Program-made: the position numbers and the translations under genes
Notes under the pieces: generated by a model
Databases searched by the model: none
What the model was told of the DNA's origin: nothing
What the model saw: only the letters and a program-made list of their open reading frames with translations
Source: an uncultured Gammaproteobacteria bacterium
GTDB lineage: Bacteria; Patescibacteriota; Patescibacteriia; Magasanikbacterales; GWA2-37-8
DNA: 64,000 nucleotides
Direction: 5' to 3'
Assembly (NCBI GenBank): GCA_964619625.1
Contig: CAZUFD010000003.1
Location: 30,282 to 94,281 of the forward strand
Shown here: piece by piece, positions 6,686 to 48,308 of the stretch
How the letters are laid out: the number at the start of each line of letters is the position of its first letter
Position numbering within the stretch: the stretch's first letter is position 1

Positions 6686-7651
6686 TTACTTTTTACCGCT
6701 GTGAAATTTTTTGTGGATATCGCGCAAGCGCGGATTGGTGACGTGCGTGTAGATTTGAGTTGTAACAATATTTTTATGGCCCAGAAGTTCTTGCACGGAA
6801 CGCATATCTGCGCCTTGTTGCAGTAGATCCGTGGCAAAGCTGTGGCGCAATGTATGCGGCGTGGCATCTATGGGCAATCCGGCCATGGATCTGTATTTGC
6901 TTACCATCCGCTCTATGGAACGAGCGGTTAAACGGTTGTCATTTTCTTCATCGCCACCTTTTTTATAGTTTATAAATAGCGGTTGGTGCATGTCTTTTCT
7001 AGTTTTAAGATACTCTCCCAACCATTTTAAGGCTCGATCGGAGAAATAAATTGTACGGGTTGAACCGCCTTTTCCAGAAATGGTTAGTTCTTCATCGGAA
7101 TATTTTCCCTTTTTTAAGTTTTCCACGTTAAAGCTTCTTACATTGAGTGAAGTTAATTCGGAGACACGCATGCCGGTAGAGAACAGGATTTCTAAAATTG
7201 CCCGATCACGCAAGCCGTCCGGCTTGGAAAGGTCGGGCATGTTCATTAATTTTTCTACTTGTTCAAATTTAAGAAATTTAATTGCCTTATCTTTATCCGT
7301 AAGTTTTGGCAGCTTTATTTTTTCCGATGGCAGGGAAATGATATCTTTTTCAGCAAAATAGGCGAGGAGATTTCGTAAAGCGATCAGATAATAATTTTGC
7401 GTTGTTTTTTTATTAAAATTGCCCCGCTTATCCTTTTTTCGGGATAAAGATACGCGATAATTCCAGATATGTTCCGGGGTAAGTTCATGGGGTTTTAATG
7501 AGCCTAAATTTGATTCTTGGAGCCATTTGGTAAAGGTTTTGAGAAAGTTGTGGTAATTGCGGGTAGAAATAGGGGAGAGGCCCTTTTCAATTTCGCAGTA
7601 TTCCAAAAAAGTGGGGATGTGGAAGGTGATGGGTTGATTGGATTTGTGCAT
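6686..7651 (-). CDS. tyrosine site-specific recombinase (XerC/XerD-family integrase)
   Basis: C-terminal catalytic motifs HTLRHSFATDLLQQGADMRSVQELLGHKNIVTTQIYTHV; N-terminal SAM-like core-binding domain. Confidence 0.85.
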   Translation of the reverse strand: MHKSNQPITFHIPTFLEYCEIEKGLSPISTRNYHNFLKTFTKWLQESNLGSLKPHELTPEHIWNYRVSLSRKKDKRGNFNKKTTQNYYLIALRNLLAYFAEKDIISLPSEKIKLPKLTDKDKAIKFLKFEQVEKLMNMPDLSKPDGLRDRAILEILFSTGMRVSELTSLNVRSFNVENLKKGKYSDEELTISGKGGSTRTIYFSDRALKWLGEYLKTRKDMHQPLFINYKKGGDEENDNRLTARSIERMVSKYRSMAGLPIDATPHTLRHSFATDLLQQGADMRSVQELLGHKNIVTTQIYTHVTNPRLRDIHKKFHSGKK

Positions 7652-7690
7652 AAGCTTGTATTAACCGTATTTTTATTATATCATAAAATA

Positions 7691-7699
7691 TTATACGAC
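7691..7699. repeat. candidate att core TTATACGAC (left copy), followed by CGTATCTTAAT arm-like motif
   Basis: Exact 9-mer recurs at 11634-11642 next to a near-identical CGTCTCTTAAT motif; the two copies bracket the compositionally foreign segment. Confidence 0.3.
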
Positions 7700-7712
7700 G
7701 TATCTTAATTGT

Positions 7713-7862
7713 ATGAGTAGTTTCGTAAAAACCCGTGCGGCCACATTATTTTGGGGATTTGCGGTAACGTATTTTTTTACCGGTCATATCGTTACTTCCC
7801 TTAAGATTTTTGCCGTTATGGCAATTGGCAACACACTTATCATGTGGAAGCTAGTAAAATAA
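7713..7862 (+). CDS. hypothetical small membrane protein (49 aa)
   Basis: ATG-initiated ORF MSSFVKTRAATLFWGFAVTYFFTGHIVTSLKIFAVMAIGNTLIMWKLVK, hydrophobic; not in ORF track (below 60 aa). Confidence 0.3.
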   Translation: MSSFVKTRAATLFWGFAVTYFFTGHIVTSLKIFAVMAIGNTLIMWKLVK

Positions 7863-7872
7863 GGAGCTATAT

Positions 7873-7900
7873 TTGACATAATTATTTTATATGTTAATCT
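7873..7900 (+). promoter_or_regulatory. sigma70-like promoter (TTGACA -35, 16-nt spacer, TAATCT -10)
   Basis: Perfect -35 hexamer 7873-7878 upstream of GC-rich ORF X1. Confidence 0.45.
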
Positions 7901-7939
7901 TTGTATTTAAGACAAAAAAACACCACCAGGGAGGCATCC

Positions 7940-8317
7940 ATGAATTGGCGCGAAGTTGCAAGCCGTGATGATGTGGTGGGCGGGGAGATTGAGACCCAAG
8001 AAGGGGAGTTCATCTTCCGCGGCCCGATCACATCTGTAGAAGTTCGTGATGACGGCCTGGTCTATTTCCAGGTTGCCTGGGCAGCCCAGAAGCCCATCAG
8101 CATGGAAGGCGGATGGGTGAAGCATGAGGCCACAAGCTTCGTGGTGAGCGCACGTGTTTCGATAGAAGATATCGGTGAAGGCAAACTTCACTTCCGAACT
8201 TCGTTTGCGGAGTCCGCAACCATCTTCCTAAAGGGGAGTGGTAACAAACTGAGTCCACGCAATGTTCGTGGTCTGCGGGTTTGTAGAAGTCACAGAAGAC
8301 ATGCCAAGGCTTCTTGA
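7940..8317 (+). CDS. GC-rich small protein, family X copy 1 (hypothetical, 125 aa)
   Basis: GGGAGG SD 5 nt before ATG 7940; about 60% GC versus AT-rich surroundings; weak similarity to 9744-10097 (MNWREV/MKWKKV N-termini; W.K...S...ED motif). Confidence 0.6.
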   Translation: MNWREVASRDDVVGGEIETQEGEFIFRGPITSVEVRDDGLVYFQVAWAAQKPISMEGGWVKHEATSFVVSARVSIEDIGEGKLHFRTSFAESATIFLKGSGNKLSPRNVRGLRVCRSHRRHAKAS

Positions 8318-8391
8318 GAGGGGGAAATCAGTAAGGCCGTCCAAATTGCTTTGATTATAAAAGTTATAGTTAAAGCAATGACGGTCTTAAT

Positions 8392-8419
8392 AAAATACAC
8401 CTTTAATGAGGTGTATTTT
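8392..8419. terminator. bidirectional intrinsic terminator hairpin (AAAATACACCT...AGGTGTATTTT)
   Basis: 11-bp perfect stem between convergent X1 and Y1 genes, flanked by T/A runs. Confidence 0.5.
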
Positions 8420-8564
8420 ATTATTTAAAATTGCAAAACCACCGCCCCGAACTCATCTTTGCAGATAAAATCGGAAACGGTGGTTGAAAGAATCCTTGAT
8501 CGGCATCACTTGTTCCATAGATCAAATGTCCGAATAACTAAGACTCTAGTTGGTTACTCTGGTG

Positions 8565-8873
8565 CTACTCCTCGGCCTGGATAGCGTCCAGCGAACCGAA
8601 AAGTCTGGCGATGAAGAGATCTTCGGCAGCTCCACTGAAGTGCTGAGAAAGTTGGATCGTGATGGTGCAATCGGCGCGTCCCCGCCAGTCTCCGTGGTTG
8701 GCCACGGAGGTGAGCAGTTCGTGGTCCTCAATCGAGGCCGGCGCCAGGTAGTTCTCGGTCATCCGAAGCAGTTCTCTGACAGCGCCGGTTGCGCCGTATT
8801 TGAACTGCAGTCTCAACCTACGACTGCCGTTGCGCGCCTTCTTCAGTTCGACAGACATTTGCTCTCTCATCAT
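8565..8873 (-). CDS. GC-rich small protein, family Y copy 1 (hypothetical, 102 aa)
   Basis: GGAGG SD 5 nt before ATGATG start at 8873; TTGACC-17-TACCAT promoter on minus strand about 8928-8956; paralog of 9424-9732 and 47997-48308. Confidence 0.65.
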   Translation of the reverse strand: MMREQMSVELKKARNGSRRLRLQFKYGATGAVRELLRMTENYLAPASIEDHELLTSVANHGDWRGRADCTITIQLSQHFSGAAEDLFIARLFGSLDAIQAEE

Positions 8874-9027
8874 ACACACCTCCGAGGTGGGATGGAATTG
8901 TTTGTGCCGTGAACAAAGTAGCATGGTACCCTACTTTTAGCCCCAGGTCAATTAAATATATCAAATCTTTAGTTTATTTTTAGGAAAAATTTATTATAGT
9001 TAGTGTATAGTAAATCTTAACTATAAT

Positions 9028-9306
9028 ATGAAAATAAAGTTTTATTTAGTATTTTTCTGTCTGTTAATTTTGTTAGGCGCTGGCTGTAAAAAAGAAGAAT
9101 GGCAAGGATTTTATTATCCAAACGGCTGTCTTTCGTGCATGGAAGATTATATCTATAGCCCAACGCTTTCTTCAGTGGAAGAATGCCATAACTGGGCACA
9201 GGAAATAAAGAAAGAGCGGGGGGATAACCCAACCGATCAATATGAATGTGGTTTAAATTGTAGGGCCAAAGGTATTTTGCATGTTTGCAAGGAAACGGTA
9301 GATTAA
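9028..9306 (+). CDS. small Cys-rich lipoprotein (92 aa)
   Basis: Signal peptide with lipobox LLGAGC; AT-rich codon usage (host-like); TATAAT at about 9021. Confidence 0.55.
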   Translation: MKIKFYLVFFCLLILLGAGCKKEEWQGFYYPNGCLSCMEDYIYSPTLSSVEECHNWAQEIKKERGDNPTDQYECGLNCRAKGILHVCKETVD

Positions 9307-9373
9307 GTAAAAATTTTACTATCCGCCTGCTCTAGCAAGTCGTTTTTTAGTACTCAAATAGCGGAATAGATAA

Positions 9374-9401
9374 TTGACAATAATAATTAATGTGTTAGTC
9401 T
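9374..9401 (+). promoter_or_regulatory. sigma70-like promoter (TTGACA -35, 16-nt spacer, TAGTCT -10)
   Basis: Perfect -35 at 9374-9379; same architecture as promoter at 7873. Confidence 0.4.
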
Positions 9402-9423
9402 TATGTACCAGGAGGAAGATTCC

Positions 9424-9732
9424 ATGAAAGAGAAAGCTGCCGAAGTCCTTGGACAGGCTCTGGTGGGTACGCGGACGCTCAAGCTGACGTTCAAGCGAAC
9501 AGCTCCAGCAATTGTCTTCAGGCATCTGGATTCAATGTGGGGCAGAGGACTGTTGTTCCTCTCCAGCGGTAATCGAGTGCGACTCAAGATGCTTCTGGCC
9601 AAGGGTGCCGATTGGGGAGGGGATGAGAAGCGAGTTCTGGAGCTTACCCTTACCGTGGAATTCACGGAACAAAGCCGGGGTTGGTTTATTCGCCAGGTTT
9701 CCGATGGCCTGGACGATATCCAGGCTGTGTGA
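9424..9732 (+). CDS. GC-rich small protein, family Y copy 2 (hypothetical, 102 aa)
   Basis: AGGAGG SD 9410-9415; conserved blocks GTRTLKLTFKRTAPAIV, ADWGGDE, LTLTVEF, LDDIQA shared with Y1 and Y3. Confidence 0.7.
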   Translation: MKEKAAEVLGQALVGTRTLKLTFKRTAPAIVFRHLDSMWGRGLLFLSSGNRVRLKMLLAKGADWGGDEKRVLELTLTVEFTEQSRGWFIRQVSDGLDDIQAV

Positions 9733-9743
9733 GAGGAGTTCTT

Positions 9744-10097
9744 ATGAAATGGAAAAAGGTTGATCGGGTAAATAAAGGGATTACCATAACCGGAAATCAT
9801 GGTGTCCCGCCAACAAGATGGTGGAACCACTGGTGGCTTGCACTCTTCGGCTGGAAGACAATTGTCACGTTCCGTCTTCCTGACGAGGTAGTAGCAAGCG
9901 GGTACCATGTGGGCTTCACGGCCAAAGACGGCAAGTCATGGTGCAAGCGCGCAGTCGCGCACGATAAGTTCTTTAGCATGAAAATCGGGTACGAGGATTG
10001 CAAGTTCTGGGTCAAAACAGCCCGCAATCCCGAACAGCCCGATACGGGTGGCGCAGTGATTTTGCCCGAGCTCATCAGCAGAGGGCCTCTTCACTAA
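9744..10097 (+). CDS. GC-rich small protein, family X copy 2 (hypothetical, 117 aa, Trp-rich N-terminus)
   Basis: GAGGAG SD; ATG 11 nt after Y2 stop (operon); WWNHWWLALFGW segment. Confidence 0.65.
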   Translation: MKWKKVDRVNKGITITGNHGVPPTRWWNHWWLALFGWKTIVTFRLPDEVVASGYHVGFTAKDGKSWCKRAVAHDKFFSMKIGYEDCKFWVKTARNPEQPDTGGAVILPELISRGPLH

Positions 10098-10169
10098 GAT
10101 GCGGCCATCTTTTCCAAGACGTACCCGCCGCAAGGCGTTTTGGAAATAAAAAACTTGCGGTTTGAACAA

Positions 10170-10202
10170 AAATAACCTTCTCATGAAGGTTATTTTTGTT
10201 TT
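10170..10202 (+). terminator. intrinsic terminator (AAATAACCTTC-TCAT-GAAGGTTATTT + TTGTTTT)
   Basis: 11-bp stem plus T-run downstream of X2. Confidence 0.55.
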
Positions 10203-10261
10203 CCACCACACTATTCATTTTAGTTCTTATACTTAAACATAGATTGTGGTATAATAAATTT

Positions 10262-10438
10262 ATGTCAAAGCTAATTAGACGAAAAAGAGGAGATACAAAA
10301 ATAGGCACCATTGAAAAGATATATGGAAGGGATTTTGGTACGCGTTCAGATGCTAAGTTAGGAAATTTCTTAGAAAAAAATGGCTATGATTCATTAAGCG
10401 AGCTTTTAAGAAAAGATGACAAAAAAAGATCTAGATAA
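10262..10438 (+). CDS. hypothetical small basic protein (58 aa)
   Basis: Internal ATG of ORF 10196-10438; MSKLIRRKRGDTKIGTIEKIYGRDF; AT-rich. Confidence 0.35.
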   Translation: MSKLIRRKRGDTKIGTIEKIYGRDFGTRSDAKLGNFLEKNGYDSLSELLRKDDKKRSR

Positions 10439-11042
10439 TTTAATAAATGACGTACCAGCCCTCGAACATCTCGCTGGGCGTTTTTTATTTATAAAGGATG
10501 AAGAATTAAGACAGAATATTACCATTGCATTCCAATATATTATATTTTTAATTGCTGTTGAGGGTCAAATTACGTGGCCAGGACCAATTATATATTCTAT
10601 TTTTAAGGATATTATGGTTTACACCGGAAGCATTGTTGAGTCTTGTTTGAGGTATTGCATTAAAGAATATTTTAAGGCAGGTAAGATAGATCCTAAGGAT
10701 GTGATGATTGCAGAATGGAAAATAAATAAACACTTTCAAATTTATAAAATAGACGATAACACAGAGGTGTGTTCTTTGGTGAGGCATAAAAAATTTGAAG
10801 ATTTTGGTGATGAAACACGCTTTAAAGATATAAATAAAATTGCACAAAAAGTTGGAATTTTAACAAAAGAATTATTTGAAAAAGCTGACAGGATTAGAAT
10901 TGATAGGAATAAAGTGCATGTAGTTGCTACTGGAGAAACCCATGATTATTTTACAAAAGAAAATACACAAGCGACTTTTAAATCTGCAAAAGAGATAATA
11001 CAAAGAGTAGAGGAAAAATTATTAGAACTTAATAATAAATAA
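10416..11042 (+). CDS. hypothetical protein (208 aa)
   Basis: Long AT-rich ORF, no recognisable motifs; weak hairpin plus T5 at about 11090-11115. Confidence 0.55.
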   Translation: MTKKDLDNLINDVPALEHLAGRFLFIKDEELRQNITIAFQYIIFLIAVEGQITWPGPIIYSIFKDIMVYTGSIVESCLRYCIKEYFKAGKIDPKDVMIAEWKINKHFQIYKIDDNTEVCSLVRHKKFEDFGDETRFKDINKIAQKVGILTKELFEKADRIRIDRNKVHVVATGETHDYFTKENTQATFKSAKEIIQRVEEKLLELNNK

Positions 11043-11695
11043 AAATTTTTAGTATCTAAAGTAGGGAAGTAGTAACGCTTTGACCGCTGTGGCACCCACC
11101 AGGTGCTTTTTAGTTTATTTAATTTGGCTAACCTAAGCCAAACCTACCCTTTTTGGCTAAGATTAGCCTAATTTATGAGGGTAGGGAAGTTCATTACAAT
11201 TCACTTAGTGCACAGCCCCGTTGCTTGTCTATCACTATGACCTATGTTTCGTCTTATCGACTACTTTATAACTCATATGTGGTTGAGGTGTCGGAGGAAG
11301 AGGTTTGCCTTTGACAGCAGTGACCTCAATTCCTGTTCTACCACCGCGGACTCCAATCAACTCAAGTTGAGCTGAGACAGGAGCCTTTTGGCCGGGTTTG
11401 AGAGCTTTCATATAACTATTATGAAATGCGTGAAACAGGCCGACTAATCCTGCAGCTGCTTAATGCAGCAAGTGGTCAACTGCGAACAGCTGAGGAAAGG
11501 TCAAGTCGGGGCCGTGTATTAAATGAACTGTAGAAGTAATTATACCATTAAATGCCTAAAAGGTTTTATAAGACTGAACGGAGGCAGATTAAAGGATCGT
11601 TAAATACCGTATATATACGTCTCTTAATCTATGTTATACGACATTAAGCACAGAGGGCCCAGGGAGATAAAACCAGCCAAATAAGGCTCTCCCCC
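11040..11695. other. 650-nt ORF-free, highly structured region (candidate ncRNA or att/arm region)
   Basis: No ORF of 60 aa or more on either strand; nested inverted repeats (TTGGCTAACCTAAGCCAA; CCTACCC...GGGTAGG; GGCTAAGATTAGCC; GGGAGA...TCTCCC); repeated GTAGGGAAGT; lies between convergent gene ends. Confidence 0.4.
11634..11642. repeat. candidate att core TTATACGAC (right copy), preceded by CGTCTCTTAAT
   Basis: Matches 7691-7710 motifs. Confidence 0.3.
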
Positions 11696-12715
11696 CTATT
11701 TCCAATATACCTTTTCGCCAAAACGAAGATCTATATATTCCTTTGGTTTTATGGTTGGTAGAATCTGCTTAAAGGTATCTATTTGCGCGTCCAGATTATT
11801 TTTTGGTTGGAAAATAATACTCCAGGATTCTTTGGTATCAATTACCATTCCGGCATTTACATCGTCTAAAACGAAGAATTTAGGCGCTGTCCTCCCCTGC
11901 TCGGCCAACTCTCGCTGCCAGGTAATGGCCGAGGTAATAAATTCAGTTGGTAAGATACCGGATTTCTTTAATTCAATTTCAAGATTTCGTCTGTCATATA
12001 TTAAGGGATATCTGCCAAATAGTTTTCGGATTTTTTCATAATTTGGCGCATGTTTAACCGAGGATGTTGTAATAATTGGTGTGGAAGTGGTGCTGGAAGT
12101 AAACGAAATGCTTAAACTAGTGGTTACAGTTTCCTTTAAAAATTCCCCGGCCTCAACATCCGTTAAATATTTGATTGCGGTTCCTTCGCTATCCAATAAG
12201 AAATATTTCTTACCATTATCATAAATAATAGAGGAAATTTTTTCCTTAACTTCTATATTTAATTCATTAGGAAATACCTTTGTAACCCGAACGCTTTCCA
12301 ATGATAATATATTATATAAATCCTTTGAAATGCTGCCTTCATCAACAAAGAAGTAGTTATTTAAAGGAAGTCTGCTTTTCTTGTTTAAATAATTTTGAAA
12401 TACGACTTGATCCAATTCTGCTCTGGTATTATTTTCCAGTCCAAAATAATTAACTTTATTAATTCTAAAGTATGGTAAATATGCCAAGCAGGCCGCCCAG
12501 GATATAAGTAAAATAAGAAGTATAATCAACTTTAGCTTGGGACTTCTCTGTTTCTGTCTTCGCTCCGCTTTAAATGGATTTGATTTATAATGTAATGACT
12601 GGTTTGGAGCGGCAACAGAGTATTGTTTTTTTCTAAAAAGGCGTAAAATTTTTTTACGCCAGCTTACGTGGGGTTTATATTTTTCAAAAGCGTGTTCAGA
12701 ACGGAAATGCTTCAT
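11696..12715 (-). CDS. cell division protein FtsQ/DivIB-like (POTRA-containing membrane protein)
   Basis: Basic cytoplasmic N-terminus, single TM (LILLILLISWAACLAYL), periplasmic domain; follows mre/PBP2 region on the same strand. Confidence 0.5.
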   Translation of the reverse strand: MKHFRSEHAFEKYKPHVSWRKKILRLFRKKQYSVAAPNQSLHYKSNPFKAERRQKQRSPKLKLIILLILLISWAACLAYLPYFRINKVNYFGLENNTRAELDQVVFQNYLNKKSRLPLNNYFFVDEGSISKDLYNILSLESVRVTKVFPNELNIEVKEKISSIIYDNGKKYFLLDSEGTAIKYLTDVEAGEFLKETVTTSLSISFTSSTTSTPIITTSSVKHAPNYEKIRKLFGRYPLIYDRRNLEIELKKSGILPTEFITSAITWQRELAEQGRTAPKFFVLDDVNAGMVIDTKESWSIIFQPKNNLDAQIDTFKQILPTIKPKEYIDLRFGEKVYWK

Positions 12716-33959: not shown

Positions 33960-34041
33960 TGCTCGTTATGTAGAAGCGGCACGCAGGGGGTGTGCAACTT
34001 CTCATAATAGACCCTAAACGGCGAAAGGAGCCGTTTTCCCG

Positions 34042-34392
34042 ATGACCGACTACCAGAACCCTGATCCCGAACTTTTTGGTCTGGAGATCGCAGTCCATTT
34101 GGGCTGGCTCGCCGGTACCGAAGCCCCTCCACTAGAAGACGAGGGGGCAGAGATCACGATCAGCGAGTTTTCCGACGCTGATCTGTTCAACTTGGAGGTC
34201 GAACACGCAGTCGACACTGCCGTTGTCGTGCCAGAGCCCGCTGGGCTGAAGGCGGCAACTGCGGAACCGACCAGCGTGGATGATGGTTGGGAGATGGAAA
34301 ACACGGGTGACAGCCAGGAGAATACCCAGGTTGATCGCCCGCGTCACATGATCATTACGGCAGAAGGTCCCCGTCTGGTCCACCACGAGTAG
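34042..34392 (+). CDS. GC-rich highly acidic protein (116 aa, hypothetical)
   Basis: AAAGGAG SD; Asp/Glu/Pro-rich; about 60% GC. Confidence 0.6.
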   Translation: MTDYQNPDPELFGLEIAVHLGWLAGTEAPPLEDEGAEITISEFSDADLFNLEVEHAVDTAVVVPEPAGLKAATAEPTSVDDGWEMENTGDSQENTQVDRPRHMIITAEGPRLVHHE

Positions 34393-34417
34393 TTGGGTGT
34401 GCCGGCGCGAAGCATCT

Positions 34418-34481
34418 GTTCGCCGCCGCACTACCGCTTTCAAGATAAAAAAATTTGTCTTGTAAAGCGGTGGCGGCGAAC
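34418..34481. repeat. 64-nt imperfect inverted repeat (GTTCGCCGCC...ACCGCTTT / AAAGCGGT...GGCGGCGAAC) around an A-rich loop
   Basis: 10 + 8 bp stems with 5-nt bulge; directly after stop of 34042 gene; no T-run. Confidence 0.5.
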
Positions 34482-35280: not shown

Positions 35281-35409
35281 GTCGGGTTGCTCTTTTAATA
35301 GACAGTCTTATTTGCCCCGGGGCAAGAATGCGTCAAATTAGCGCTTTCTCGCCCCTCGGCAACCAAGATTTCGCCGAGACAACCATTTTCCGTGAGAGGA
35401 TCGAAACAA

Positions 35410-35820
35410 ATGAAGAACTTCCGCACCCAGTTCACCTCCATCGCCAGCAACCTGATCATCCTGATCATCGCGCTCGCCTTCGTCCTCACGGGCGGGACGA
35501 CCACGGTCAACTCGGCCTACGCCGACGGCTCCGCGATCACCGTCCGCAAGAACGGCAAGAGTTTCCCGCTCACGCAGAAGCACCGCAACGCGATCAGCGA
35601 GATCGAGCACATCATGCGCCGGTCGGGCGACAACCAGAAGCAGCCGACGAAGTTCTTGTACTCCTGCAACCAGGGGAACGAGAAGATCCGGCAGATCGTC
35701 GCCACCTTCCCCGCGGATGAGCAGTTCATCATGTCGGACGAGTGGGACGGCGAGTGCTTCTTCTACATCCCGCCGACCCGGAAGGTCAACAAGACGCCGG
35801 TGATGGTCGCCAAGAAGTAG
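35410..35820 (+). CDS. secreted small protein with signal peptide (136 aa), extreme GC3 codon usage
   Basis: GAGAGGA SD; signal peptide ...LIIALAFVLTGGTTTVNSAYA; about 68% GC with GC3-saturated codons unlike host. Confidence 0.65.
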   Translation: MKNFRTQFTSIASNLIILIIALAFVLTGGTTTVNSAYADGSAITVRKNGKSFPLTQKHRNAISEIEHIMRRSGDNQKQPTKFLYSCNQGNEKIRQIVATFPADEQFIMSDEWDGECFFYIPPTRKVNKTPVMVAKK

Positions 35821-35873
35821 CAACACCCTGGTCGTGTTCGCGCCCCAAGCGCGGCCACGGCCTACGGCCCAAC

Positions 35874-35910
35874 GAACCCCGCACGCAAGTGTCGGGGTTC
35901 AGTATTTTTA
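35874..35910 (+). terminator. intrinsic terminator GAACCCCG...CGGGGTTC + T-run
   Basis: 8-bp GC stem followed by AGTATTTTTA. Confidence 0.65.
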
Positions 35911-36762
35911 AAGAGAAATATTAAATAACTTTTTAGCGTTTTCGGTCGTCGCAGCCTCGGCTTCGGCAAAAGATATTTGTTTTACTTCGGCAATTTTTTT
36001 AATTGTTTCTCGCACCATCGGCGGTTCGCATCTTTGGCCCCTATACGGAATCGGCGCCAAGTATGGCGCATCGGTTTCCACGACAATTTTTTCTAAAGGA
36101 CAATTTTTTACCACTTCAAGCAAATCAAATTGAAGTTGCGGAGAATTTTTCTTTGGCGGAAATGTTATAACACCGGTAAAACCAATATGCAGCCCCAATT
36201 CCAAATACTGCTGGGCAAAATGCCAGTTGCTGGTATAACAATGAACCGTGCCGCGAATTATTTGCTGCCCGTACTGGGCCATAAGCTGCTTTAACAGTTC
36301 TATCATCTCGGCATGCGCTTCGCGTACATGAAGAACCAAAGCCACGTTTAATTCTTGCGCTAATTTATATTGCAAAGCAAACATCTGTTTTTGTTTTTCC
36401 AACACCTCTTCCCTGGTTTTGTTTTCGGGCAATCTGTACAAATCCAAACCGCACTCCCCTACGGCAATCACTTTTTTACTTTGCCCCAAATTTTTATAAT
36501 ACTCATAATCAAACTCTTCTTCGCGCGACAAAAATTTACTTTCCTCTTCGTCAATATGAGTGGAAAACAAATGTATGGGATGAAGTCCGATGCTCGCATA
36601 CGTAAACGGAAACTTTTCAGCCATTTCCACTCCGGCCCGACTGGTATCTTTTTGCGTGCCAACCAAATTTAAAATCATATTCTCCTGGCCGCATTTTTTT
36701 ACGACTGCTTCGGCGTCATTTCTAAAACCATTAAACTGCACATGGCAATGGGTATCAAACAT
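35908..36762 (-). CDS. tatD: TatD-family metal-dependent DNase/hydrolase
   Basis: MFDTHCH N-terminal motif and TIM-barrel His/Asp/Glu residues. Confidence 0.8.
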   Translation of the reverse strand: MFDTHCHVQFNGFRNDAEAVVKKCGQENMILNLVGTQKDTSRAGVEMAEKFPFTYASIGLHPIHLFSTHIDEEESKFLSREEEFDYEYYKNLGQSKKVIAVGECGLDLYRLPENKTREEVLEKQKQMFALQYKLAQELNVALVLHVREAHAEMIELLKQLMAQYGQQIIRGTVHCYTSNWHFAQQYLELGLHIGFTGVITFPPKKNSPQLQFDLLEVVKNCPLEKIVVETDAPYLAPIPYRGQRCEPPMVRETIKKIAEVKQISFAEAEAATTENAKKLFNISL

Positions 36763-43468: not shown

Positions 43469-43589
43469 ACCACACTATGGGGATTTAAGCCTTATTCTAC
43501 AGTCTTTTCTGAAACTGTAAACCCCTCTATAAATTGACTCTTTATTCTACTAATGATAGCGTACTAATACACCCTAGAAGGAGTAAAGG

Positions 43590-43925
43590 ATGACCAGAAA
43601 CCCATCTGTGGGTGTCTTTAGAAGAATGTGGTGGTGCATTCGGTGCCGGAGAGCGTTGCCTAACGGCGGCCCATGCTCCCGCTGCAGAGGGATGCAGTGC
43701 ATTGGGTGCAAGGGGGCGCCTGACGGTCAATGCTCTCGCTGTAGAGGAAACTTCTGCATTTCTTGCTTTGAAGCGCATGCGCAAGTGAACCATGCGCCAA
43801 ACATGGTGATGACAGGGGTCAGTTGTGTGGAATGCGGAAATGAACCGGATGGCCAGTGTGCCCACTGCCCGGCAATCCTGTGCGAAGGCGAGGAATGCCG
43901 AAAAACCCACGAAGGCAGGCATTAG
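43590..43925 (+). CDS. GC-rich Cys-rich protein with three tandem CxxC-x(8-10)-CxxC zinc-ribbon units (111 aa)
   Basis: GAAGGAG SD 6 nt before ATG; repeats CIRCRRALPNGGPCSRCRG / CIGCKGAPDGQCSRCRG / CVECGNEPDGQCAHC; TTGACT at 43534. Confidence 0.6.
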   Translation: MTRNPSVGVFRRMWWCIRCRRALPNGGPCSRCRGMQCIGCKGAPDGQCSRCRGNFCISCFEAHAQVNHAPNMVMTGVSCVECGNEPDGQCAHCPAILCEGEECRKTHEGRH

Positions 43926-43974
43926 TCGTAACAGTGAAGACGGCTATGGAAGTATTTGCCCGATCGGGCAACCA

Positions 43975-44010
43975 GGACATCTGCAAGCCCAGCTCTGTCC
44001 TTGTTTTTTT
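43975..44010 (+). terminator. intrinsic terminator (GGACA...TGTCC + T9), preceded by hairpin TTGCCCGATCGGGCAA at 43956-43971
   Basis: Stem-loops followed by TTGTTTTTTT. Confidence 0.6.
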
Positions 44011-47996: not shown

Positions 47997-48308
47997 ATGC
48001 AGAACAAGCTTTCGTTGGCCTTGGAGCAGGCGCTCCAGGGATCATGTCAGGTTCAAATCACTTTCAAACGGGATGCGGCTAACAGTGTCCGCTCTCTGCT
48101 GAGAATGATCAAGACCGGGCACATCTTGATGCCGGACGATGAGGAGAAGGCTCTCAAGAAGACCGCTCAGTCCGGTGGGTGGGGTGAAGATCGTCATCGT
48201 ACGACAAATGTCACGTTCACGAGCATTTTCGTCAAGGCCGATATGAAGGATACGTTTGCCAGAATGATGCGTCTAGCCATCGAACAGATCGAGGTCGTGC
48301 CATCCTAA
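47997..48308 (+). CDS. GC-rich small protein, family Y copy 3 (orphan, 103 aa)
   Basis: Blocks GSCQVQITFKRDAANSVRSLLRM, SGGWGEDRHRTTNVTFTSIF, LAIEQIEVV align with Y1/Y2. Confidence 0.7.
   Translation: MQNKLSLALEQALQGSCQVQITFKRDAANSVRSLLRMIKTGHILMPDDEEKALKKTAQSGGWGEDRHRTTNVTFTSIFVKADMKDTFARMMRLAIEQIEVVPS

Follow-up and report, generated by a model that had tools for sequence, protein, structure and literature searches.

The question raised by this locus is whether a tyrosine recombinase gene, two short repeats and the small genes lying between them make up a mobile element with its own integrase. The window, i.e., the whole analysed stretch of 64,000 nucleotides, belongs to contig CAZUFD010000003.1 (assembly GCA_964619625.1) of an uncultured bacterium placed in Candidatus Magasanikbacteria, a lineage of the Candidate Phyla Radiation (CPR, Patescibacteria). 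An earlier reading made from the sequence alone, called here the sequence-only reading, had proposed an integrated element with attL/attR ends and, as an alternative, an element exploiting the Xer recombinase of its host. In our opinion, the repeats are mainly parts of a chromosomal dif site, the recombinase gene (xer1) belongs to the chromosome, and the DNA between them is, with a probability of about 0.6, a dif-adjacent accessory island resembling integrative mobile elements exploiting Xer (IMEX), which entered through ancestral Xer-mediated integration and was then changed by turnover of cassettes. The parts of the locus on which this answer depends are as follows.

6686-7651, minus strand: xer1, a XerC/D-like tyrosine recombinase gene of 321 codons (Pfam Phage_integrase, E = 1.2e-41, and an N-terminal SAM-like domain)
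7674-7708, minus strand: pseudo-dif beside xer, composed of TTAAGAT, ACGTCGTATAA, TATTTT and ATGATATAATA
7709-11616: accessory DNA between dif and xer, ~3.9 kb
11617-11644, minus strand: dif1, a full 28-bp Xer site, ATGTCGTATAA-CATAGA-TTAAGAGACGT
11696-12715, minus strand: ftsQ-like gene (Pfam POTRA_1, 1.9e-5), the right-hand neighbour of dif, syntenic in all relatives

Two motifs had been pointed out at this locus, and both were found where they had been reported. The 9-mer TTATACGAC is present only twice in 64 kb, at 7691-7699 and 11634-11642, with 0.33 matches expected and at least two obtained in 3 of 100 shuffles. The 11-mer CGTMTCTTAAT is also present only twice, at 7699-7709 and 11618-11628, with 0.04 copies expected and two copies in none of 100 shuffles; with one more base, its copies become 12-mers having 11/12 identity, and the order of the two motifs is reversed between the left and right sites, as had been described. 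At the right site, 6 bp lie between the motifs. At the left site, they overlap by 1 base in the coordinates given earlier or by 4 bp when they are taken as 11-bp arms.

At the right site, the two motifs fall into the single 28-bp dif1, in which the L arm (11634-11644), the spacer (11628-11633) and the R arm (11617-11627) are read on the minus strand. The consensus of the clade, ACGTCGTATAA-CATAGA-TTAAGCGACGT, from which dif1 differs at two positions, has arms of 11 bp each, forming a 9/11 inverted repeat, and a 6-bp spacer, as is canonical for dif. No second site of the window comes within 6 mismatches of this consensus. About 29 related loci of Candidatus Magasanikbacteria, each 12-21 kb long, contain one copy, always just after ftsQ, and the 28-mer shows there only 0-5 mismatches despite Xer identities of 69-87% and flanks that cannot be aligned. 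The cumulative GC skew has its maximum at 12-13 kb of the window, where dif1 sits, and gene orientation flips there from plus to minus; the skew changes sign at dif in 14 out of 17 related loci and drops clearly across it in the remaining three. The stretch 10073-11738, which includes dif1, is 100% identical in an independent assembly (L165; such numbers denote loci or contigs used for comparison). From the 11-6-11 layout, the near-invariance amid divergent flanks, the single copy and the switch of skew and orientation, it may be concluded that 11617-11644 is most likely the chromosomal dif, located at the replication terminus of a Candidatus Magasanikbacteria chromosome. The supposed 9-bp core is then to be regarded as part of the L arm of dif, and the 11/12 motif as its R arm. 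Since the motif pair corresponds to two arms of one site, the analogy with Xer systems would place the crossover region in the 6-bp spacer, so that the ideas of an attL/attR core and of arm-type sites have to be abandoned.

The cognate recombinase is readily recognised. The catalytic R, K, HxxR, H and Y of Xer1 are readable in MRVSEL, GKGG, HTLRH, LGH and IYTH, its closest match in PDB is E. coli XerD (1a0p), and its top NCBIfam models are XerD (227 bits) and XerC (222 bits). As both scores are under the equivalog cut-offs, Xer1 is classified here as a divergent member of the Xer family. The features by which a Xer/dif system is known, namely a 28-bp 11-6-11 site, its location at the terminus, its conservation and a catalytic Xer partner, are all present, the single copy having been checked within 64 kb and in the related loci. 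From the established role of the family, dif1 and Xer1 would be expected to resolve chromosome dimers.

Relatives were sought with the recombinase as the query against one genome per species. Orthologues of xer1, 66-87% identical and in the same synteny, were found in more than 30 loci from Candidatus Magasanikbacteria assemblies, with porA-porB-flavodoxin on one flank and ftsQ-like-serS on the other. Xer-seeded searches of genomes and metagenomes gave nothing above 87% identity, and exact look-ups of the Xer sequence and of two cargo proteins, A1 and A2, gave no match. Because xer1 stands at the same place in relatives with and without an insert, it is to be considered a housekeeping gene and not the integrase of an element. 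A separate observation concerns its coding sequence, which in eight genomes holds ACGTCGCTTAA, the exact reverse complement of the dif R arm, at T-S-L-N codons (10499-10509 in L007, L009, L013, L014 and L016; L011:846-856; L012:659-669; L015:6327-6337); this stretch is not present in xer of the window.

Comparison with related genomes, which had been suggested as a way to find an empty site, gave a clear result, with an unoccupied dif in ~19 loci. The basal order in these insert-free loci is ftsQ, promoter, dif and xer, dif being ~15-170 bp upstream of xer. In L007, L009, L011, L012, L013, L014, L016 and further metagenome contigs, the gap between ftsQ and xer is ~100-170 bp and contains the 28-mer. 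Some loci of this kind have a peculiarity: in L011 (257-290), L082, L083 (L083:6355-6390) and L085, dif is followed by an inverted copy of the spacer end and the right arm, giving a perfect hairpin of 13-14 bp, AGATTAAACGACT-ATAC-AGTCGTTTAATCT, which could be a scar or an extra Xer-binding site.

Seven other assemblies carry inserts between dif and xer, i.e., L001 and L081 (3.0 kb), L004 (1.3 kb), L005 (2.7 kb), L006 (1.4 kb), L008 (3.8 kb) and L092 (1.3 kb), and the truncated contigs L002, L003 and L010 show the same type of xer-proximal junction. These inserts share no protein with that of the window; the genes in them that can be named encode photolyase, SIMPL, NYN, phosphodiesterase and DUF4037 proteins, and the others are orphans. 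Intact dif lies on the ftsQ side in every insert-bearing genome, and each of these genomes has an extra arm at the xer-proximal junction, on the same strand as dif. It is an R arm in L004, L008 and L010; L001 and L008 show the arrangement R', 4 bp, L, which L010 has in a decayed form.

The most instructive pair is L005 and L006, which share 89% identity on either side of the locus. Their homology stops 4 bp past dif and resumes ~2 kb further on, and the 1.95 kb specific to L005 terminates in CCGTTAAAGAA-CATAGA-TTAAGCAGAGT, a hybrid in which the left arm is degenerate, the spacer exact and the right arm still recognisable. The flank after this hybrid is homologous to the flank after dif in L006 (score 34 vs 16.2 +/- 2.7 for shuffles). 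The entry of a circle with a dif mimic should leave an intact dif at one end and, at the other, a hybrid of which one arm is degenerate; judged from these junctions, the comparison shows the L005 insert to be a clean insertion of the Xer type at dif.

The site next to xer in the window is of a different kind. Its parts are TTAAGAT (7702-7708), the L arm ACGTCGTATAA (7691-7701), which is the only exact L arm in 64 kb, TATTTT (7685-7690) and ATGATATAATA (7674-7684), the last of them including the -10 box TATAAT of xer (7675-7680). TTAAGAT looks like what an 8-bp deletion has left of an R arm, as judged from L001, where the same place is occupied by an R' arm that is intact and, after a gap of 4 bp, by the L arm; the apparently full R arm at the left site takes its last four bases from the L arm. 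The arms of the pseudo-dif and of dif1 are on the same strand, i.e., in direct orientation. With its perfect L arm and truncated R arm, and without the spacer and the right arm of dif, the pseudo-dif is not a simple hybrid.

The L arm of the pseudo-dif sits between a -35-like box and the -10 box of the xer promoter, and a promoter scan gave a divergent pair of promoter-like sites at this point. A homologous site, ACGTCGCATAA-TATTAT-ATGGTATAAT, made up of the L arm, TATTAT and a -10 box of the extended type, has one and the same sequence in L002, L003, L005, L006 and L092, the flanks of which are unalignable; the closest relative, L166, has kept the pseudo-dif despite the deletion of xer1 there. 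As the spacer differs (TATTTT) and the right arm is absent, the pseudo-dif is hardly a recombination partner; as its L arm lies inside the xer promoter and is far better conserved than its surroundings, it most likely acts as a Xer-binding operator combined with a promoter, through which xer would regulate itself. Recombination between dif and pseudo-dif being unlikely, the island is probably fixed.

The content of the island agrees with the sequence-only reading in its open reading frames (ORFs), i.e., the 321-aa recombinase outside it and, inside, a 49-aa hydrophobic peptide, a 92-aa lipoprotein and small GC-rich and AT-rich ORFs.

7713-7862, plus strand: p49, hydrophobic peptide of 49 aa, divergent from xer; weak DUF2061 match (E = 0.015); conserved in L166
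7940-8317, plus strand: A1, GC-rich orphan, 125 aa, GC ~0.53, with promoter-like and terminator-like flanks of its own
8565-8873, minus strand: B1, GC-rich, 102 aa, paralogue of B2 and of B3 (47997-48308)
9028-9306, plus strand: small lipoprotein, 92 aa, lipobox LGAGC, a single-gene cassette absent from L166
9424-9732, plus strand: B2, GC-rich, 102 aa, absent from L166
9744-10097, plus strand: A2, GC-rich, 117 aa, in an operon with B2, 91% identical in L166
10245-11042, plus strand: p58-p208, AT-rich two-gene module of overlapping ORFs (10262-10438 and 10416-11042)
11072-11196, strand not assigned: conserved non-coding element with hairpins GGCTAAnnTTAGCC and the motif CACTTCCCYAC
11235-11411, minus strand: 58-aa ORF in the slot beside dif; phrog_3202 (function unknown), E = 3.6e-7; no Pfam or NCBIfam match

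The four GC-rich ORFs have 52-57% GC compared with 41% for the window, and the two AT-rich ones encode 58 and 208 aa. When the cargo was compared with Pfam, PHROGs, PADLOC and NCBIfam, only phrog_3202 was significant, the matches to DUF2061, DUF7256, AbiEii and Csx1 being non-significant. Domain scans of the island ORFs revealed neither a recombinase or other mobility gene nor any phage, plasmid, transfer or replication gene. Scans of the window and the island for tRNA, tmRNA and Rfam families were empty, so there is no attachment site of the tRNA type and no known RNA there.

A1 belongs to no Pfam, PHROG or PADLOC family, and its sole homologue, 90% identical, is in L166. B1, B2 and B3 are 31-34% identical to one another; the profile of the B family covers 156 representative clusters, and its AlphaFold2 (AF2) model, with a predicted local distance difference test score (pLDDT) of 95, has no fold match in PDB. 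A copy of B2, 96% identical, is present on a 400-bp NCBI contig. Other small GC-rich (55-62%) orphan genes are scattered over the window at 33961-34470, 35281-35970, 43561-44010 and 47997-48308, the last being the third B paralogue, with promoter-like sequence upstream and terminator-like sequence downstream.

Outside the window, the p58-p208 pair was found in two places of unrelated context that have no dif arms, L161:2712-3494 (76% nucleotide identity) and L163:2933-3620 (65%). Its layout resembles that of a toxin-antitoxin pair, and a Csx1/HEPN-like annotation hint (E = 0.042) is non-significant. At the edge of this module, the 10-mer AACATAGATT stands in inverted orientation (10237-10246); its significance is unproven. 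A search for internal half-sites that would split the island into modules gave matches at the background level only.

The non-coding element at 11072-11196 has stretches of 76-89% identity in the dif-xer islands of L001 (7812-7923), L005 (9366-9436), L006 (9330-9400) and L092 (7377-7421). Its motif CACTTCCCYAC is enriched in the window (7 matches vs 0.9 expected), and relatives have it in their dif-xer region as well. When the window is compared with L001, a hairpin of the element shows compensatory changes. The motif was also seen in the xer promoter region of L008 and L010, and its reverse complement, GGGGAAGTGG, after the ftsQ stop codon in L082 and L083. The content of the slot between dif and the element differs from genome to genome: the window has the phrog_3202 gene there, L001 has a gene for 213 aa, L005 has its insert of 1.95 kb, and L006 and L003 have a GC-rich cassette; the slot of L092 aligns with none of these. 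At the other end of the island, small acidic proteins of 117-152 aa adjoin xer in L005 (9523-9921), L006 (9522-9920), L003 (703-1161), L092 (7491-7907) and L166 (11684-12037); their types are only marginally similar to one another (E ~0.06), and the window, where p49 is found at this place, has nothing corresponding to them.

The history of the island can be followed by comparison with L166 (JACOYB010000009.1), whose nucleotide identity to the window is 88-95%. It was found only via the cargo protein A1 and had been missed by the Xer-seeded searches because it is without xer1. p49, A1, B1, the promoter of B2 and A2 are common to both, in the same order and at ~92% nucleotide identity. As this is the level of the core genes, most of the island should be old and vertically inherited. 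L166 has no counterpart of window 8957-9369 (the lipoprotein cassette), of B2 (an indel at 9415-9733, exactly from the ribosome-binding site of B2 to that of A2) and of the stretch from p58 to dif (10199-11691). The island of the window is consequently better described as an old mosaic, changing cassette by cassette, than as one discrete element.

In L166, xer1 was deleted between two GGTAAAGnTT repeats, leaving the first 43 codons in addition to the pseudo-dif, and 20 kb of its sequence contain no site like dif1. Beside ftsQ, there is a different XerC/D-like gene, encoding 314 aa and 30% identical to Xer1, and ~26 bp upstream of its start the 28-bp site ATTGAGTATAA-TATCTC-TTACACTCAAT, with arms inverted at 10/11 positions. 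This segment (L166:9586-13122), present also in L167, is the equivalent of window 6688-7521 and 10199-11691. Some Parcubacteria loci have homologues of the second recombinase ~0.5 kb downstream of xer1, separated from it by a short stretch. The whole Xer/dif module may have been swapped between genomes ~8% apart; the evidence comes from one species (L166 and L167). It is a tentative and rather doubtful extension of this idea that the compact xer-dif pair of this CPR lineage serves both as a recurrent entry point for small foreign cassettes and as a replaceable module.

Taken together, these data lead to the following preferred scenario. DNA with a dif mimic would have been integrated, in one or more ancestral events of the IMEX type, by the host Xer at dif. 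Each integration would regenerate an intact dif on the ftsQ side and push the old right arm toward xer, where TTAAGAT could be what is left of it. Afterwards, cassettes of one or two genes would have been gained and lost by ordinary insertions and deletions, while the retained L arm would have become an operator for xer, a role that dif itself may play in the compact arrangement; the island would now be fixed. Both the entry of this particular island by Xer recombination and the binding of Xer to the arms are suggested here from sequence comparison. The alternative of a Xer-exploiting element, offered by the sequence-only reading, is borne out insofar as there are empty sites, unrelated inserts in other genomes, a dif with a partial copy in direct orientation and the clean case of L005, and the island has no recombinase of its own while the host Xer gene lies outside it. 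It fails as a description of the present island, which is a mosaic shared partly by descent with L166, without signs of current mobility; replication or transfer genes were not found in it, and the scanned viral contigs held no convincing dif mimic.

A number of facts weigh against the Xer-mediated entry. All comparator genomes are metagenome assemblies. The island of the window contains no hybrid site with the CATAGA spacer, and further GC-rich orphans of the window, one of them a B paralogue, are located far away from dif. In viral contigs, neither a circular form nor a donor bearing attP nor a mimic of the Magasanikbacteria dif was found. The L arm near xer cannot be derived from a single integration into an ancestor of the order promoter-dif-xer and needs a pre-existing extra half-site or a further rearrangement; a derivation of R', 4 bp, L from one integration was tried and failed, a pre-existing extra half-site being required. 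This order recurs in three lineages, those of L001, L008 and L010. In L004, the duplicated segment seems to take in the -10 box of the promoter besides dif, which exceeds a pure Xer exchange. Finally, most of the island is shared with L166 at the identity of core genes, the two differ by insertions and deletions of cassettes at microhomologies that have nothing to do with dif, and the p58-p208 module exists elsewhere without dif arms.

Several of these points speak for a Xer-independent hot spot, in which the dif-xer gap at the terminus merely tolerates insertions, either illegitimate or through homology in ftsQ and xer, after DNA uptake, and the extra arms are half-sites selected as Xer operators. 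We regard this explanation as rather unlikely. In its favour, the indels between the window and L166 lie at GGTAAAGnTT and at the AGGAG of ribosome-binding sites and not at dif arms, p58-p208 moves without dif, the pseudo-dif overlaps the -10 box of xer and is strongly conserved, the "empty" L011, L082, L083 and L085 also possess an extra inverted half-site between dif and xer, and the L004 duplication includes the promoter. The GC-rich cassette of L006 is bounded by the direct repeat AAAYAAAAAACC (8666-8680 and 9243-9257) and not by dif, which hints at an insertion mechanism unrelated to dif. Such a hot spot does not account for the signature of dif recombination in L005, where the insert starts 4 bp past dif and ends in a AACATAGATTAAGC copy and the displaced flank, nor for the facts that the most variable slot touches dif and that intact dif is consistently on the ftsQ side.

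An active capture platform comparable with integrons, where xer beside its own site would work as intI/attI and promoter-bearing cassettes would still be acquired, seems improbable to us. The arrangement is suggestive, a divergent recombinase gene being followed by an array of small, compositionally foreign genes, and GC-rich foreign-looking segments are sixfold denser in the islands than in the flanking DNA of ten genomes. Also, the same GC-rich cassette (77% nucleotide identity; L003:56-634) abuts dif in L006 and L003, the xer-proximal genes of which differ, and the start of the L003 contig within the dif spacer could reflect heterogeneity of the population. Against this, no repeated attC-like or dif-like sites separate the cassettes, the cassettes have their own promoters, Xer1 scores 100 bits with the integron-integrase model against a cut-off of 265, similar GC-rich genes occur elsewhere in the genome, and the order of cassettes common to the window and L166 is due to descent.

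The classical integrative element, with the recombinase as the integrase, TTATACGAC as the att core and CGTMTCTTAAT as arm-type sites, is very improbable. A tyrosine recombinase at one end and short direct repeats at both ends did invite this interpretation, but xer1 lies outside the repeats and is syntenic in every relative examined, ~19 of which are insert-free, the motifs form one conserved 28-bp dif, there is no tRNA target, and the cargo is mosaic. That the motifs are chance AT-rich matches and no island exists is scarcely credible, as the sequence-only reading had held. The recurrence of the 9-mer alone in 3 of 100 shuffles speaks for it; against it, the 11-mer recurs in none, dozens of genomes have both motifs at conserved positions, and the intervening genes are absent from relatives.

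Among known systems, the gonococcal genetic island (difA/difGGI), TLC-phi of Vibrio cholerae and LME-1 offer the closest parallels, an intact dif with a partial copy in direct orientation having been linked there to stable integration (PMC5357621, PMC9765430). The island of the window resembles these IMEX in being an insert without an integrase, placed at the terminus dif between an intact and a partial direct copy, and the junctions of L005 match the descriptions of the gonococcal island, TLC-phi and Legionella LME-1. LME-1, which uses the single recombinase XerL, is similar in one more respect: the junctions of mobile DNA reveal dif in a lineage without a described one. Unlike IMEX, the island of the window has no phage, plasmid, transfer or replication genes, is mosaic and shared by descent, and its partial site keeps one arm and neither the spacer nor the other arm, the clean signature being restricted to L005; neither a free form of it nor a second host is known.

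The position of xer immediately beside its site in this CPR group has a counterpart in the single-recombinase system of streptococci and lactococci, where xerS adjoins difSL (PMC5357621). The site of the window differs in having 28 bp in the 11-6-11 layout and not the 31 bp of difSL, and the protein is XerC/D-like in its length and best matches, not XerS- or XerH-like. XerH/difH of Helicobacter is another single-module Xer system with xer next to the site. Some CPR loci contain a second XerC/D-like gene in the same operon as xer1.

Small accessory genes are associated with Xer-binding sites also in the pdif modules of Acinetobacter, which, according to PMC12907356 and PMC11705084, are thought to be shuffled by the host Xer. 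The window differs in that its locus, which is chromosomal, has a single complete site together with a relic in direct orientation and no sites between cassettes. The sites of pdif modules are complete, alternate in inverted orientation and are carried mostly on plasmids. With integrons, the locus has in common a tyrosine recombinase gene divergent from an array of small orphan genes. It departs from them in the absence of attC-like repeats, in the cassettes having promoter-like and terminator-like flanks of their own and in the recombinase being an orthologue of Xer with a chromosome-maintenance site.

Similar sites are distributed beyond the Magasanikbacteria. Among 115 more distant CPR loci, where the identity of Xer is 42-60%, 55 have a related 11-6-11 site no more than 250 bp upstream of xer, in most cases 5-50 bp away, compared with 0 of 115 control regions. 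Many Parcubacteria and other CPR loci (L017-L160) have dif-like sites peculiar to their lineages upstream of the xer1 orthologue, for example ACTTCGTATAA-TGTAGG-TTAATCCACGT and ACTTCGTTTTA-CATATA-TTGTGCGAATG. In L039, L040, L043, L105, L159 and L160, a second XerC/D-like gene follows xer1 at a distance of ~0.5 kb downstream, with a short stretch between the two.

Viral contigs were scanned for dif mimics, giving 0, 1 and 19 matches, roughly the number expected by chance, none of them convincing. The best full-length match, in L172, was rejected, as it lies within an ORF of 1398 aa. An intergenic site in a 41.5-kb viral contig (L168:1054-1081, IMGVR_UViG_3300011422_000009), TATCAGCACAA-CATAGA-TTAAGCGACTG, repeats the layout of the hybrid in L005, its left arm being degenerate, its spacer exact and its right arm a match at 9/11 positions; as a single match, it could be due to chance.

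Literature searches found no description of dif/Xer, or of xer placed beside its site, for CPR bacteria. The locus provides a concrete candidate for dif and its cognate Xer in these ultra-small uncultured organisms, in Magasanikbacteria and, in a related form, in many Parcubacteria. Such a site marks the replication terminus in fragmented metagenome assemblies and accounts for a recurrent assembly breakpoint and variable spot. For annotation, it is a caution that a tyrosine recombinase gene near short repeats and orphan genes does not necessarily indicate a mobile element. If the more speculative view of a replaceable module were true, a chromosome-maintenance system would have been swapped at ~8% divergence, and the island would be a by-product of Xer-mediated capture. 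Summarizing, the few accessory genes of these reduced genomes can enter beside dif, apparently through integration by the host Xer, with no need for an integrase encoded by an element.

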